A stretch of 44,329 bases of DNA. Origin: Chloroflexota bacterium (lineage in GTDB: Bacteria; Chloroflexota; Limnocylindria; Limnocylindrales; CSP1-4). The position numbers were made by a program, and so were the translations under genes. Shown piece after piece: positions 36,968 to 42,975 of this stretch. The number at the start of each line of letters is the position of its first letter. Within the stretch, counting starts at the first letter, position 1. A model generated the notes under the pieces. The model was given only the letters and a program-made list of their open reading frames with translations. It ran no database searches and had not been told where the DNA came from. The stretch lies in assembly GCA_021783595.1 (NCBI GenBank), contig JAJXTS010000004.1, positions 1-44,329 on the forward strand, written 5' to 3'.

Positions 36968-37984
36968 TCAGGACTCCTGGAGGGCGGGCCCGAGGTACAG
37001 CGCGCGGGGCTGCGTGCCGTACTCGGGGTGGAGGGGACGCGCTCCGGCGGCCAGCGCCGCCGTGCGGATGTCGTCATTGGGGTCGTTGGCGTTGCCGAAG
37101 CGCCGGGCGCCGACCGGGCAGATCTCCACGCAGGCGGGTTGCTGCCCCTTGCTGATCCGCTGGTAGCACCAGGTGCACTTGTCGGCGACCCCCGGCGTGC
37201 CAGCCGGCGTGTCCTCGCCGGCCGGCGTGATGTAGCGGGCGCCGTAGGGGCACGCCACCACGCAGTAGCCGCAGCCGATGCACCTGCGGGCGTCCACCAG
37301 GACGATGCCGTCCTGGGTCGTGTAGGTGGCGCTGACCGGGCAGACCGAGGTGCACGGGCTGTCCGCGCACTGCATGCACAGCCGCGGCTGGAAGTAGGCG
37401 GACTTGACGGTCTTGCCCCCCGCGCCCGGTGCCGTCGAGGTGGGCGGGAAGCCGTTGATGCCGGCGTCGGGCGAGTCCACGTAGACCGTGCCGTCGGTCA
37501 TCGTCACATGCCGCTCCACCCACGTCCGCGTGAACGCGGCGGACTCGGGCACGTGGTTCTCCTCCTTGCAGGCGACCACGCACAGCCCGCAGCCGATGCA
37601 CTTGGAGGTGTCCACCACGAACGTCCACGCCTTGGTGGCCGGGTCGTAGTTGGGGACCAGCGGCGAGACCTGGTCCCCGGCGCTCGCGAACACCGGGAAC
37701 AGCTGCCCGAGGACCGCGGCCCCCGCCACCCCGCCCGCCAGCGCCAGCCCGAAGCCGAGGAAGGCGCGCCGGGACAGGGAGGCCTGCCGGATGGCCGGGG
37801 CGATGGCCTCGAGCGGGACGAGGACGGCGTCGGCCGGGGCCTCGCCCGCCGTCGCGGCGGCCCGCCCGGGCGCGGTGGCACCTGCCACGGCCGGCTCCGC
37901 AGGGGGCGCTGACGGCTCGCCGACTGCCGGCTGCGGCTGGTCGAGCGGCTCGAGGCGGTCGAGGGGCTCCGACGGCTCGGTCAC
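36968..37984 (-). CDS. NrfC/DmsB-like 4x[4Fe-4S] protein with twin-arginine motif
   Basis: SRRAFLG plus hydrophobic stretch; CIGCGLCVVAC, CMQCADSPCTSVCP, CIGCGYCVVACPY, KCTWC...PACVEICP. GTGA overlap with the upstream gene. Confidence 0.9.
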   Translation of the reverse strand: MTEPSEPLDRLEPLDQPQPAVGEPSAPPAEPAVAGATAPGRAAATAGEAPADAVLVPLEAIAPAIRQASLSRRAFLGFGLALAGGVAGAAVLGQLFPVFASAGDQVSPLVPNYDPATKAWTFVVDTSKCIGCGLCVVACKEENHVPESAAFTRTWVERHVTMTDGTVYVDSPDAGINGFPPTSTAPGAGGKTVKSAYFQPRLCMQCADSPCTSVCPVSATYTTQDGIVLVDARRCIGCGYCVVACPYGARYITPAGEDTPAGTPGVADKCTWCYQRISKGQQPACVEICPVGARRFGNANDPNDDIRTAALAAGARPLHPEYGTQPRALYLGPALQES

Positions 37985-38727
37985 GGTGCCACCTTGCTCG
38001 GGCTGGGCTGCGGGCTGGGTACGGCCCCCCCGCTCACGGTCGGCTGCGGCGTGGGCAGGGTGAGCTGCTGCGGGCCGCGCCCCGCCTGGTGGCACTGGAG
38101 GCACTCGTTGTCCGTCAGCGGGCCAGAGGGGTGGCGCTCGTTGCGGGCCTTGAAGCCGTCGGGGCCGTGGCACGTCAGGCAGGGCGGCAGGTTGGCCAGC
38201 GGATGCGAGACGACCGGCGGGTGCAGGGCCCAGGTCGTGTGCGGGTCGTGGCACTGGAGGCACTGGGAAACGTAGTGGTTGGCCGGGACGATCGTCTGGA
38301 TGGTGGCGGGGCGGCCCTCGGTGGCCTCGTGGCAGCGGATGCAGACCGCGTCGGTCGGCATCGCGATCGCCGCGCCCGTGGTGATGCCGCGCTTGGCCGC
38401 GTCCTCGTGCGCCAGCATTGGGCCGTGGCAGCTCTGGCAGCCGATGCCGGCATGGGTGTGGCTGGCGAGCCGGCTCGCCTCGGTGAGGTGGCACGCCACG
38501 CAGTCCGACGAGGCCGCGAACGACATGTCCAGCGCCGCCCACTGCTTGGCGTTGCTGTCGCGGTGGAGGGCGAAGTCCAGGTACGGGCTCCACGCCATCG
38601 CGGCGCTCGCGAAGATCGCGACCGCGATCACGGCCGCGCCGACGAGAACGCCGGTGGTGCCGATCAGCCAGCCCCGGCGGGAGCGGGGCCGGACGGATGC
38701 CCAGAAGCGGCGCGCGCGCGTCCTCAT
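37981..38727 (-). CDS. Membrane-anchored hexaheme cytochrome c
   Basis: N-terminal hydrophobic helix; CVACH, CQSCH, CIRCH, CLQCH, CLTCH, CLQCH. ATGA overlap with the regulator. Confidence 0.88.
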   Translation of the reverse strand: MRTRARRFWASVRPRSRRGWLIGTTGVLVGAAVIAVAIFASAAMAWSPYLDFALHRDSNAKQWAALDMSFAASSDCVACHLTEASRLASHTHAGIGCQSCHGPMLAHEDAAKRGITTGAAIAMPTDAVCIRCHEATEGRPATIQTIVPANHYVSQCLQCHDPHTTWALHPPVVSHPLANLPPCLTCHGPDGFKARNERHPSGPLTDNECLQCHQAGRGPQQLTLPTPQPTVSGGAVPSPQPSPSKVAP

Positions 38728-39437
38728 AGGACCGACGGGTTCAGCAGGCCGCGCCGAACCGTGTACCGGAGGAGCTCGACCCGGTCGTGCAGGTCGAGCT
38801 TCTCCATGAGGCTGGCGCGACTGGAGTGGACGGCCTGCTCGGAGAGGTCCAGCGACCGGGCGATGTCGCGGTTCGTGTGCCCCAGGGCGGCCAGGAGCAG
38901 GATCTGGCGCTCGCGGTCCGTGAGGTGCTCGTACGGGTCGTCGGCCGCCGCCGGGGTCCGGCGGACGTACGTGTCCACCATGCGCGTCAGGATCGCGGGG
39001 CTCACGTACGTGTGGCCCGCGCTCACGGCCCGGATCGCGGCGACCACGTCGTCCGCGAGCGCCTCGCGGGTGAGCAGCCCGGTGGCGCCCGCCTTGAGCA
39101 CGGTGGCGAACTGGTCCGTGGCGCACCGGCAGTCGAGGGCGATCACCCGGGTCCCGGGGGCGGCCGCGCGGACCTCGTCGATCGCCTCCGGCACGCCGAT
39201 GCCGTCGGCGGCGAAGGCCTCGTAGCCCAGGATGACCACGTCGGGCGCCGCCGACCGCGCCTGGGCGAGGATGGCCTGGCGGCTCCGCGCCTCGGCGACG
39301 ACGGCCATGTCGCGCTCGTGGTCGACCACGGACCTGAAGGCGGCGCTGAGCATGGGGAAGTCGCCGATCGCGAGCATGACGCCAACCATGGCGCCATCGC
39401 GCGGCACTCCGGAGCTCTGGTCGCGGGCAGCCGTCAT
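38724..39437 (-). CDS. NarL/LuxR-type response regulator with degenerate (pseudo-)receiver domain
   Basis: LuxR HTH (LTDRERQILLLAALGHTNRDIARSLDLS). Receiver has PDVVILG instead of PDVVLLD and GLLTR instead of GYLLK. Start uncertain. Confidence 0.85.
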   Translation of the reverse strand: MTAARDQSSGVPRDGAMVGVMLAIGDFPMLSAAFRSVVDHERDMAVVAEARSRQAILAQARSAAPDVVILGYEAFAADGIGVPEAIDEVRAAAPGTRVIALDCRCATDQFATVLKAGATGLLTREALADDVVAAIRAVSAGHTYVSPAILTRMVDTYVRRTPAAADDPYEHLTDRERQILLLAALGHTNRDIARSLDLSEQAVHSSRASLMEKLDLHDRVELLRYTVRRGLLNPSVL

Positions 39438-39760
39438 CGGGACGCCGCCCCCCGGGTCTCGAGCCTGTCGCGGCCTGTCATCGCTCCACTCCCGCACGTG
39501 GGCCCACCTTCGACCCCACGTCCGTCATGGTCGGCTGACCGGACCGGCTCCCGACAGGCACCCCAGGGCGGATCTCACGGGCCCCGGGTGGGCAAACGCG
39601 GCCACGGTGGCGCCAACCCGCCACGCATCCGGGTGGCGTCTGGCAACGCTGGTGGGGTTCTCGACTCACCAGCATTGGCCGGCACCCCCGTTCGGGGGTA
39701 TCGCCGCCGCCTCGCCCCGCGCCTCGGGAGCCCTCCGTGCACGATTCCCGGGCTGGCCGC

Positions 39761-39766
39761 TATCCT
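39761..39766 (+). promoter_or_regulatory. -10 hexamer TATCCT for the leaderless Cys-rich sORF/cysE-cysK transcript
   Basis: TAnnnT 6 nt before ATG 39773, the same geometry as at 4115, 16517 and 32290. Confidence 0.6.
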
Positions 39767-39772
39767 GCCCCC

Positions 39773-39865
39773 ATGACCACCCGCACTCGTTGCCCCGGCC
39801 GCCGCGGCTGCTGCTCCTGTCCTGGGCGAGCGCCGGCAGCGAGCCCGGTCGCGGTCGTCCGCTAG
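39773..39865 (+). CDS. Putative cysteine-sensing leader peptide [30 protein letters not shown] (30 aa)
   Basis: ATG...TAG read directly from the sequence. Four Cys codons (39791, 39809, 39812, 39818). Ends 160 nt upstream of cysE. Confidence 0.65.
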
Positions 39866-40025
39866 ACCGTCGCCCCCCGCAGTCGGCCTCGCGCCCTTGC
39901 CCTGCCGCCCCGGCCGGCCCGAGGCCCGGGCGGCGCGTCCCACCCGCCGATTCGCCGTGCCGTGGGGGCGAGCGTCCCGCTCCTCCCGCCGCGGCGTCCG
40001 CCGACCCGCTGACCGGAGAGCGTCC

Positions 40026-40880
40026 ATGCCCACCCAGATCGACCACGACCGAGACCACGCCTTCGCCGAGGTGCTCACCGGCGACCGCGCCGCCCACGGC
40101 CGCATCTACCCGCTCAAGCGCGACGTGGCCGCCTTCGCGGACGAGCTGCTCGGGATCCTGTTCCCGCAGCTCTCCGACAACGCGCTGTGCGCCGAGGACG
40201 ACCTCGCTGCCCGGCTGGTGCTGGCCCGGCGGGACCTGCGGCGGCTGGTGGAGCCGCTCACCGACGCCGAGGCCGCGGACCGGGTCATCGCCGCGTTCGC
40301 GGACGCCCTGCCCCGCGTCCACGCGGCGCTGCTCGAGGACGGCGAGGCGATCCTCGCCGGCGACCCCGCCGCCGAGTCGCTCGACGAGGTGGTGGCCGCG
40401 TACCCGGGCTTCCTCGCCATAGCGATCCACCGCCTCGCGCACGAGCTCTACGCGCTCAAGGTGCCCGTGCTGCCGAGGCTGCTCGCCGAGGTGGCCCACA
40501 CGCGCACCGGCATCGACATCCACCCCGGCGCCACGATCGGGCGCGGCTTCTGCATCGACCACGGCACCGGCGTCGTCGTGGGCGAGACCGCGGTCATCGG
40601 CGACAACGTCAAGCTCTACCAGGGCGTGACGCTGGGCGCGCTGTCGGTGGTCAAGGCCCTGGCCGGGCACAAGCGCCACCCGACCATCGGCGACCGCGCC
40701 GTGATCTACGCCAACGCGACCGTCCTCGGCGGTGACACCGTGGTCGGCAGCGACAGCATCGTCGGCGGCAACGTGTTCATCACCAGCTCGATCCCCGCGG
40801 GCTCGGTCCTGTACCAGACCAGCCGGTCCCGCGTCCGCCGGGCCGACGAGGGGTTCGACGGTATCGACTTCGTCATCTAG
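40026..40880 (+). CDS. cysE: Serine O-acetyltransferase
   Basis: [57 protein letters not shown]; C-terminal DFVI. Confidence 0.95.
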
Positions 40881-40901
40881 AGCGGCACGTAGAGCGGCAC
40901 G
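40878..40901 (+). repeat. 12-bp tandem duplication TAGAGCGGCACG x2 including the cysE stop codon
   Basis: 40878-40889 and 40890-40901; partial third copy GCGGCACG at 40910-40917. Confidence 0.85.
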
Positions 40902-40946
40902 CGCCAAGCGCGGCACGCCGGCGTCCCAGCAGTGAAGGAAACCACC

Positions 40947-41876
40947 ATGCCCGTCTCCAGTGTCCTCGACCTCATCGGCAACACCCCGCACGTCCGGCTC
41001 AACCGGCTGTTCGACCCGCGCGTGACCGTCTGGACCAAGCTCGAGCGCGCGAACCCCGGCGGCTCGATCAAGGATCGAATCGGCCTGGCCATGATCGACG
41101 ACGCCGAGCGGCGCGGGGCGATCGCGCCGGGACGGACCACGATTGTCGAGCCCACCTCCGGCAACACCGGGATCGGCCTCGCGCTCGTCGCGGCCGTGAA
41201 GGGCTACCGCCTGATCCTGACCATGCCCGAGTCGATGTCCGTGGAGCGCCGCAAGCTCCTGGTGGCGTACGGCGCCGAGTTGGACCTCACGCCGCGCGAG
41301 CTGGGGATGAAGGGTGCCATCGCCCGGGCGAATGAGCTCGCGGCCGACATCCCCGACGCTTGGATCCCGATGCAGTTCGACAACCCGGCCAACCCCGCGA
41401 TCCACCGGGCCACGACGGCGGACGAGATCGCCCGCGATTTCCCGGACGGGCTCGACTACCTGGTCACCGGGGTGGGCACCGGCGGCCACATCACCGGTGT
41501 CGCCGAGGCGCTGAAGCCGCGCTGGCCGCACCTCAAGGTGTACGCGGTGGAGCCGACCGCCTCGCCCGTCCTGTCAGGCGGCGCGGCCGGGCCGCATCCG
41601 CTCCAGGGGCTCGGCGCAGGCTTCGTGCCGGGCGTCATGCGGACCGACCTGCTCGACGGCGTCCTGCAGGTGGATGGGCCGGCCGCGATGGACTACGCGC
41701 GCCGGGCCGCCCGGGAGGAGGGCCTGCTGGTGGGCATCTCGTCGGGCGCGGCGCTGGCCGCGGTGGCGCAGCTGGTGCCGTCGGTGCCGGACGGGTCGCG
41801 GATCCTCACGTTCGCGTACGACAGCGGCGAGCGGTACCTGTCCGTCGAGGCGCTGTGGCCCGCGCTCGGCGCGTAG
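40947..41876 (+). CDS. cysK: Cysteine synthase A (O-acetylserine sulfhydrylase)
   Basis: [14 protein letters not shown] (PLP Lys), [36 protein letters not shown]. Confidence 0.96.
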
Positions 41877-42197: not shown

Positions 42198-42429
42198 CGG
42201 TTACCTCCGCCACCCATGCTGCAACTCCAGTGTTGCCATTCCGCAATCGCCCGGTGAAGATCTGGAAACTCTGGGCAATTCTGGGTAGGTTCTCATGAAC
42301 CGGGCCGGCCGCCCGCCCGAACCGGCCGCGCGGGATGCCGCGCCGGCCCGCCTGCCCGCCGTCGGGCGTGGCACCCTAGTCACGTCCCGGCGTCGCGGTG
42401 TCGCGATCGGCGGCGACGCACGGGAGGCC

Positions 42430-42975
42430 GTGGTGGAGATCCGCAAGATCGTGCTCGAAGTGGAGGAGACGTACGCCGCCGCCGGGCGCGTGCTGGCGCG
42501 GCCCACCCGCAAGGCCGTCGCGTCGGCAGTGATCGCGAACCCGTTCGCCGGCCGCTACGTTGAGGACGTCTCGCCGCTGGTGGACCTGGGCGCCGAGCTG
42601 GGCCGGCTGCTCGCTGAGCGGGCGCTGGCGGCGCTCGGGCCGGACGCTGCCGTCACCGCCTACGGCAAGGGCGCGATCGTGGGGACCAACGGCGAGCTGG
42701 AGCACGCCGCGGCCATCCTGCACCCCAAGTTCGGCGCGCCCGTGCGGGCCGTGGTCGGCGGCGGCCCGTCGATCATCCCCAGCACCAAGCTGGTGGCCGG
42801 CCCCGGGACGCTCCTGGCGATGCCGCTGGTCAACCGTGACGACCTGTGGAGCTTCGACGAGATGGACGCCGCAACGGTGCAGATCCCCGATGCGCCGCGG
42901 GCGGACGAGATTGTGGTGAGCCTGGTCCTGGCCGCCGGGGGGCGGCCGGGCGCACGGACGAGGAAGGCGAGCTGA
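42430..42975 (+). CDS. Amino acid synthesis (AA_synth/DUF1185) family protein
   Basis: IRKIV..VEE, AVIANPFAGRYVED, YGKGAIVGTNGELEHAAAILHP, PDAPRADEI, GGRP. GGGAGG SD. Confidence 0.85.
   Translation: MVEIRKIVLEVEETYAAAGRVLARPTRKAVASAVIANPFAGRYVEDVSPLVDLGAELGRLLAERALAALGPDAAVTAYGKGAIVGTNGELEHAAAILHPKFGAPVRAVVGGGPSIIPSTKLVAGPGTLLAMPLVNRDDLWSFDEMDAATVQIPDAPRADEIVVSLVLAAGGRPGARTRKAS

Follow-up and report, generated by a model that had tools for sequence, protein, structure and literature searches.

Does a short cysteine-rich reading frame ahead of the cysteine biosynthesis genes of a Chloroflexota bacterium sense cysteine, and how would it act on those genes? The frame lies in a stretch of 44,329 nt (contig JAJXTS010000004.1 of assembly GCA_021783595.1; hereafter the window), which belongs to a 2.6 Mb metagenome-assembled genome (MAG), 85.6% complete and with 74% G+C, of the order Limnocylindrales. 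A sequence-only reading of the window had described a leaderless short open reading frame (sORF) of 30 codons, with four Cys codons within ten, directly upstream of cysE and cysK, and had proposed that it works as a cysteine-sensing attenuator like those of mycobacteria. On the basis of a comparison of relatives, we put at about three in four the probability that the sORF, at 39773–39865 on the forward strand, is a ribosome-stalling cysteine sensor with which a leaderless cysE-cysK mRNA begins.

Conservation of the sORF and its Cys codons

The sORF comprises 30 codons followed by TAG (39863–39865), and its ATG is separated by 6 nt (39767–39772) from a −10 box, TATCCT (39761–39766, forward strand). 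Its Cys codons are 7, 13, 14 and 16, so both the promoter geometry and the clustering of Cys codons described by the sequence-only reading were confirmed by the sequence and its translation. The position upstream of cysteine genes was also borne out. The sORF is followed after 160 nt by a gene for a cysE-like serine O-acetyltransferase (40026–40880, forward strand), a hexapeptide protein of 284 aa with a match to Pfam Hexapep and NCBIfam scores of 162 bits for cysE and 148 bits for EpsC, both under the cut-offs. The next gene is cysK (40932–41876, forward strand), for cysteine synthase A (TIGR01139, 393 bits, over the cut-off), the start of which may be the ATG at 40947. The sORF and cysE lie on the same strand, and a scan identified no terminator-like or second promoter-like site between them; relatives are arranged in the same way.

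We searched 401 genomes of the class for this cysE subfamily. The window's family contributed 137 further genomes, 40 of them with the gene; of the 16 genomes of the sister family f2 (about 1.1 Mb each), 7 had it, and it was absent from all 247 genomes of three other families. The 41 loci of the window's family were screened over up to 1000 nt upstream for an ATG or GTG preceded at 5–8 nt by [TC]ANNNT and opening a frame of 5–60 codons with a CxC motif. Exactly one sORF passed in 35 of the 41 loci, always on the sense strand; the antisense strand gave 0 of 41 and dinucleotide shuffles 0.1 per 41. As the relatives are kin, these locus counts do not represent independent events. One further locus (L129) carries the sORF without the −10 pattern used in the screen. 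In the sister family, in which the gene order is cysK-cysE, a sORF of 29–30 codons with the residues ICRCPS and the arrangement TACGAT-N6-ATG was found ahead of cysK in all seven loci. The Cys-rich frames located directly before cysE in two of these loci (L014 and L017) correspond to the 3' end of cysK read out of frame and were rejected.

A genome-wide screen for TANNNT, a spacing of 5–8 nt, an RTG start and a frame of 6–60 codons that contains CC or CxC, with coding regions crudely masked, returned three matches in the 2.6 Mb of the window genome, and the sORF at 39773 was the only one with four Cys codons. By eye, the second match overlaps the start of an apparent MBL-type hydrolase gene and the third lies antisense within an apparent ABC ATPase gene; neither is credible. 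Other copies of the core motif described below were limited to chance-like matches within coding sequence.

The sORFs fall into seven length classes (14, 16, 18, 19, 28, 29 and 30 codons). Among 51 unique sORFs, ATG is the start in 39 and GTG in 12, and the stops are TAG (23), TGA (23) and TAA (5). The 18 unique homologues of 30 codons start with ATG or GTG and end with TAG or TGA, and an alignment of 17 sequences of this family has no gap across the 93 columns of the ORF, as opposed to many indels in the leader behind it. We conclude that the sORF at 39773–39865 is more than a chance frame: it is real and conserved across the order.

The Cys codons were not all conserved to the same extent. 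A Cys-x-Cys motif was retained in 35 of the 41 loci and throughout the seven length classes, the middle residue being S, A, L, F or T, whereas the remainder of the peptide and its length vary. The conserved core of the window sORF is UGC-UCC-UGU-CCU (Cys14-Ser-Cys16-Pro17; 39812–39823, forward strand), and a Pro codon directly follows the second Cys codon in 44 of the 51 unique sORFs. The expectation that the Cys codons would be conserved in relatives therefore held for this pair, but not for Cys7 or the CC doublet. Codon 7 (39791–39793), which encodes Cys in the window genome only, encodes Arg in the other seven of eight close sequences compared. The Cys13 codon (39809–39811) is semi-conserved, and the doublet is missing from L030 and its closest kin (L124 and L125, with HRCSC) and from the 14-, 18/19-, 28- and 29-codon families. 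The pattern C-x5-CCSC put forward by the sequence-only reading must thus be replaced by UGC-NNN-UGU. Of the 51 unique sORFs, 48 have TGC and 3 have TGT as the first Cys codon, and all 51 have TGT as the second (39818–39820 in the window), a codon that accounts for only 7.3% of the Cys codons in the genes of the genome. This fixation may reflect a nucleotide constraint or RNA contact, or selection for a slow wobble codon.

The core is followed three bases later by a G-rich hairpin arm, YGGCG(A/G)G. This is the 5' arm of a long hairpin, P1 (39826–39892, forward strand), the G-rich 5' strand of which lies within the sORF and the C-rich 3' strand beyond it, with the sORF stop near the tip. The 5' arm of P1 begins 3–5 nt past the second Cys codon in all 51 sORFs, and 5 nt past the Cys16 codon in the window. 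Outside the core, the variable columns were distributed over the three codon positions as 14/11/15 and 7/6/8, with no third-position excess.

These observations bear on two readings in which the frame would not be a sensor. A functional Cys micropeptide, for example a metal or redox peptide, could account for the retention of CxCP and for the PRRVPA that comes next in the 28–30-codon families, but it would have to tolerate lengths from 14 to 30 codons and the loss, between families, of every residue beyond CxC(P). Furthermore, in the short families the Arg-rich tail is simply what the two arms of P1 encode in whatever frame they happen to occupy; the 14-codon frames end within the loop and the 18/19-codon frames beyond the 3' arm. 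We regard a micropeptide function as vanishingly improbable; the pattern is the one predicted for a regulatory leader peptide rather than for a functional protein, and the comparison supports the Cys codons as the probable target of selection. The other reading is that of an untranslated cis element, such as an operator, close behind the promoter, for a sulfur-responsive repressor or a ligand- or protein-binding RNA, with an incidental ORF. It would be in keeping with a core and a P1 base that are invariant at the nucleotide level, synonymous positions included, with the lack of a third-position excess, and with the stability and conservation of P1. However, either ATG or GTG may serve as the start, its spacing from the −10 box being fixed, and the frame may end in any of the three stop codons. 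The members of a family share one ORF length, without a single frameshifting indel in an otherwise indel-rich leader, and both Cys codons are retained although the one in the middle varies. The asymmetry of the locus screen between the sense and antisense strands, the lack of any Rfam covariance model match at E values up to 1 in 38500–41000 on both strands, and the presence of unrelated Cys-run sORFs ahead of the same cysE subfamily in other phyla also argue against an untranslated element, which we consider very unlikely.

The predicted leaderless start of the sensor is suggested by the genome's own promoter spacing. We counted 5776 candidate ATG or GTG starts of 1635 crudely called genes in the window genome. 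The number of starts with TANNNT ending at a given distance upstream was 114 for 6 nt, 54 for 7 nt, 29 for 8 nt and 26 for 9 nt, as compared with about 4 for other distances. The spacing at 39773 is therefore the modal spacing of the genome, and it recurs in relatives, where 24 of 35 sORFs have a spacing of 6 nt, 9 one of 7 nt and 2 one of 8 nt. On promoter geometry alone, the transcript is predicted to start at the RTG, in agreement with the leaderless start claimed by the sequence-only reading. Upstream of the −10 box, a −35-like hexamer, TGCACG (39738–39743, forward strand), is located at 17 nt. Six of 8 aligned close relatives have TGCACG, AGCACG or AGCGCG there, the exceptions being L002 and L030; TTGACG occupies this position in the 14-codon and 18/19-codon families. 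A consensus promoter scanner reported no promoter in the window, the −35-like hexamer being too weak for it. In the leader of a sister genus (g5), the scanner found a TTGACG-18-CATGAT promoter whose end lies 6 nt from the ATG. A search for RNA runs containing this DNA brought up none, and hardly any of the sequence words of the locus occurred in three metatranscriptome runs from the same study. As a more general observation, TANNNT precedes 223 candidate starts at 6–9 nt, with a sharp mode at 6 nt; leaderless genes thus appear to form a major class in this MAG, and leaderless mRNAs a major mode of expression in the lineage.

Folding of the leader and possible outputs

P1 folds with a free energy (dG) of −40.3 kcal/mol (z −2.14; 8 of 200 shuffles are equally stable), and the P1 domain folds in all 17 sequences of the 30-codon family, at −38 to −47 kcal/mol. 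The base helix is 93% paired yet invariant, and so provides no covariation; in a test on the 5' hairpin and P1 base, 91% of positions were paired, again without variation, and 129 of 500 shuffles reached the score. In the middle helix, by eye, GGAGC:GCUCC in one subgroup is replaced by GGGGC:GCCCC in another. A second, GC-rich hairpin, P2 (39904–39934, forward strand), is followed by CGUCCCACCC, without a U-run. Its stability (dG −26.6 kcal/mol, z −1.12) is not significant. A hairpin ending in GGCGCG and then UCCC recurs, by eye, in about half of the close relatives.

We propose that the sensor would work as follows. Judging from the spacing, transcription from TATCCT would begin at or beside the A of the ATG, and a 70S ribosome would load directly. 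With ample charged tRNA-Cys, this ribosome would clear UGC-UCC-UGU, unwind P1 and terminate at the stop codon near its tip. With scarce charged tRNA-Cys, it would pause at the Cys pair with P1 positioned at the entry channel; the second codon of this pair is invariably UGU, which is rare and read by wobble. The two ribosome positions would give different leader folds, and the output of cysE-cysK would presumably be higher when cysteine is short.

The most likely form of this output appears to be transcription attenuation without a U-tract, probably Rho-dependent, a proposal for which we put the chances somewhat short of even. Rho-dependent attenuation is favoured because there is no U-run terminator, because rho is present and because the leader is C-rich. 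No terminator-like site was detected in 39500–40150, nor any U-run on the whole window contig. The genome as a whole has 21 U-run sites on both strands of its 2.6 Mb (at least 5 T, or 6–7 T with one interruption), indicating that canonical intrinsic terminators are nearly absent. The rho gene was identified by its product (Rho_RNA_bind, 101.9 bits). The spacer between the sORF and cysE (39866–40025, forward strand; 160 nt) consists of 49% C and 34% G, and this C/G ratio of 1.46, a measure of composition only, is reached by 2.7% of the upstream regions of the genome (median 1.03, 95th percentile 1.41). The ratio is 1.46–2.07 in the spacers of all 22 related loci examined. Within P1, the 3' strand has a ratio of 1.86 and the 5' strand one of 0.82. 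In a Rho model, a ribosome passing through P1 would free its C-rich 3' strand, which is continuous with the C-rich spacer where Rho could load, whereas a stalled ribosome would leave this strand paired and the Rho utilization (rut) site hidden.

Genus g5 has the same sORF and P1, followed by a GC-rich hairpin and UUUUUGUU. When a ribosome was modelled at the second Cys codon by constraint folding, the freed 3' arm of P1 invaded the terminator hairpin in 6 of 12 leaders. In these models, the g5 design (sORF, 1:2 hairpin, terminator hairpin with a U-run) is that of a classical attenuator; its interrupted-stem terminator was missed by a simple scanner. It is conceivable, if rather doubtful, that one minimal sensor, consisting of a leaderless start, UGC-NNN-UGU with its always-rare wobble codon and a hairpin at the ribosome entry channel, has been wired to different outputs within one order: a U-run terminator in g5, pairing between the Cys codons and the Shine-Dalgarno sequence in L030, and, in the window lineage, a rut site gated by translation. 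In the last case, a ribosome past the Cys codons would unzip P1 and bare its C-rich strand to Rho, turning the operon off.

A translational output of the same sensor is the main alternative. The RNA of the Cys codons (GCUCCUGU, with an anti-Shine-Dalgarno-like CUCC) would pair with the Shine-Dalgarno sequence of cysE, which is GGAGA in the window (40016–40020, forward strand) and GGGAGAG or GGAGAG in close relatives, and a stalled ribosome would free it. Occlusion of this kind has been proven in mycobacteria (Canestrari et al. 2020, 10.1101/834739), and the duplex reaches −17.9 kcal/mol in the window. In four loci (L030, a member of the 30-codon family, and L043, L044 and L046, from a separate sORF family described below), the Cys stretch CUGCUCCUG is complementary to the Shine-Dalgarno region of cysE, CAGGAGCAG, over 8–10 nt and is the best partner for it in the leader (dG −14 to −21 kcal/mol), with at most 2% of other windows of the leader as good. 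However, the Cys core ranks first as a partner in no more than these four of the 24 loci tested. In the window itself, 18% of the other leader windows pair as well or better, the best at −27.6 kcal/mol, and in the 14-codon family (13 loci), in which cysE has no GGAG-type Shine-Dalgarno sequence, this proportion is 73–100%. When the Cys region was forced to be single-stranded, only 6 of 22 leaders gained more than 0.05 in accessibility of the Shine-Dalgarno sequence. Moreover, the middle codon of CxC becomes CUC, UUC, GCG or ACG in other families, so the CUCC is not the conserved element. We therefore consider a translational output unlikely. Of the mycobacterial logic invoked by the sequence-only reading, a leader that senses cysteine through its codons is supported by the comparison, but not the occlusion of the Shine-Dalgarno sequence as its output.

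Several observations weigh against the cysteine sensor with an attenuation output that we favour. No recognisable sORF was found in 5 of the 41 relatives (L114, L127, L128, L137 and L138), and the window genome has a single such locus (at 85.6% completeness and with a crude gene mask). Neither the synonymous sites of the core (TCC, TGT) nor the base of P1 vary, so there is no covariation and a constraint on RNA or DNA is inseparable from one on coding. Taken as a whole, the leader does not exceed its shuffles in stability (z +0.46), and its minimum free energy structure pairs the 5' strand of P1 with codons 5–8 of the sORF instead. The mean probability of P2 in constraint folding of the 30-codon family, in which one locus has no hairpin of at least 6 bp, was 0.56 for the free leader, 0.55 with a stalled ribosome and 0.57 with a ribosome at the stop codon, with a drop in 4 of 16 leaders. 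The means for the accessibility of the cysE Shine-Dalgarno sequence hardly differed either when the Cys region was blocked (0.45 vs 0.47, control 0.46; the same 22 leaders). The spacer of g5 is also C-rich past its terminator (median C/G 1.69), so C-richness is not specific to leaders without a terminator, which weakens the idea that it substitutes for one. Finally, a stalled ribosome that is uncoupled from RNA polymerase would normally favour Rho; that P1 hides the rut site in this state is our inference.

Related leaders and neighbouring genes

The same cysE subfamily is preceded by other Cys-rich frames outside the two families considered so far. Three loci (L043, L044 and L046), from MAGs labelled Dormibacterota or Chloroflexia, have a separate family of sORFs of 27–28 codons ending in CSC-stop, and their leaders have no C-skew (C/G 1.06–1.09). 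In MAGs of Bacteroidetes, Bacteroidota, Kryptoniota and Alkalispirochaeta/Spirochaetota (L047, L048, L052, L075, L093 and L065), the gene lies behind unrelated sORFs with runs of 3–5 Cys codons. In the five loci from Bacteroidetes, Bacteroidota and Kryptoniota, the sORF has a hairpin and U-run behind it, and the one in L048 was called by the scanner. Cys-run sORFs ahead of this cysE subfamily, with hairpins and U-runs, were also found in Ignavibacteriota-like MAGs.

In some relatives, a gene for a DUF4395 membrane protein (Pfam, 96.6 and 89.9 bits) is inserted between the Cys sORF and cysE. This is the case for genus g3 (L028, L029, L049, L107, L123 and L125) and also for L035, L038 and L039. 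A block with the conserved pattern GGAGG-N5-GTG in L023–L027 aligns with the Shine-Dalgarno sequence and start of the g3 DUF4395 gene, and opens an ORF of 13–16 codons that ends just before the Shine-Dalgarno sequence of cysE. The window has a possible, weak counterpart, a second mini-ORF of 16 codons (GTG...TGA; 39962–40012, forward strand) that ends 13 nt ahead of the cysE ATG and has a degenerate Shine-Dalgarno sequence. The mini-ORF may be the remnant of a deleted DUF4395 gene, now serving as a coupling mini-ORF.

Upstream of the sORF and divergent from it lies a gene for a LuxR-type response regulator (38724–39497). The ORF at 37981–39126 (reverse strand) encodes multihaem cytochrome c motifs (Cytochrome_C7, paired CXXCH); its listed start runs into the response-regulator ORF, and the real start is probably located further downstream. 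About 420 nt 3' of cysK, an ORF at 42295–42975 (forward strand) matches the Pfam 'Amino acid synthesis' family PF06684 (221.8 bits), without an NCBIfam name.

Comparison with known leader-peptide systems

In attenuators of the trpL/hisL type, the position of the ribosome on regulatory codons selects between alternative RNA folds. By comparison, the window leader has no U-run terminator, only two to four sensor codons, and a translation start at the 5' end without a Shine-Dalgarno sequence. In Escherichia coli tnaC, free tryptophan is sensed via the nascent peptide, and the ribosome stalls at the stop codon and covers a rut site. The window leader resembles tnaC in having a leader ORF followed by a C-rich untranslated spacer on which Rho might act, in a genome that contains rho. 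It differs from tnaC in that hungry Cys codons, 14 codons ahead of the stop, would be the site of the stall, and in that the rut strand would be hidden by a hairpin.

Proof of leader peptides with regulatory Cys codons has so far come from mycobacteria alone; for a few Actinobacteria and Rhodobacterales there are predictions. The same principle, with no more than two sensor codons, appears to head the cysteine operon throughout an order of uncultured Chloroflexota from soil and fresh water, in the gene orders cysE-cysK, DUF4395-cysE-cysK and cysK-cysE. The sequence-only reading had supposed that the lineage might be one in which such leaders had not been described. It is indeed a lineage of Chloroflexota rather than of Actinobacteria, and we found no published description of Cys-codon leaders there in the literature searched, which did not extend to supplements and subscription journals. 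The pattern provides annotators with a rule for the detection of a gene that pipelines miss. The natural series of sORFs, from 14 to 30 codons and with or without a terminator, would make it possible to ask how few hungry codons suffice and why the rare UGU has become fixed. It is also suited to the question of how attenuators operate in high-GC genomes without U-tract terminators.

The closest counterpart is the leaderless poly-Cys sORF of Mycobacterium smegmatis (Ms5788A), which is a proven attenuator acting by occlusion of the Shine-Dalgarno sequence; the same source describes the sORF Rv2334A ahead of cysK1-cysE in M. tuberculosis and uses as its criterion at least two consecutive Cys codons (Canestrari et al. 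2020, 10.1101/834739). The window leader is similar in having a leaderless sORF as the first cistron of a cysteine operon, Cys codons as putative sensors of charged tRNA-Cys and no canonical terminator. It differs in belonging to Chloroflexota and in having a UGC-NNN-UGU unit rather than a run of consecutive Cys codons, the CC of the window (codons 13–14) not being kept in the family. It is also a single locus in the window genome, within the completeness and masking limits given above, rather than a multi-operon 'ribulon', and folding gives no support for occlusion of the Shine-Dalgarno sequence in the window.

In Rhodobacterales, the motif uORFC-8-2 upstream of cysS has two conserved Cys codons in or beside a stem, and ribosome-mediated attenuation has been proposed (Brewer et al. 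2021, PMC8632094). It differs from the leader described here in its tandem Cys codons, its U-run terminator, its target and its host group, the Alphaproteobacteria, and it is not called leaderless there. For Actinobacteria, a comparative study from 2005 (PMC1262725) predicts leader peptides whose Cys codons lie close to the stop; they lack a conserved terminator and have a spacer rich in pyrimidines, and a mechanism like that of tna, with Rho, is put forward. Leaderless starts are not considered in that study, whereas in the Chloroflexota both the hairpin that follows the Cys codons and the C-rich spacer are kept across the order.

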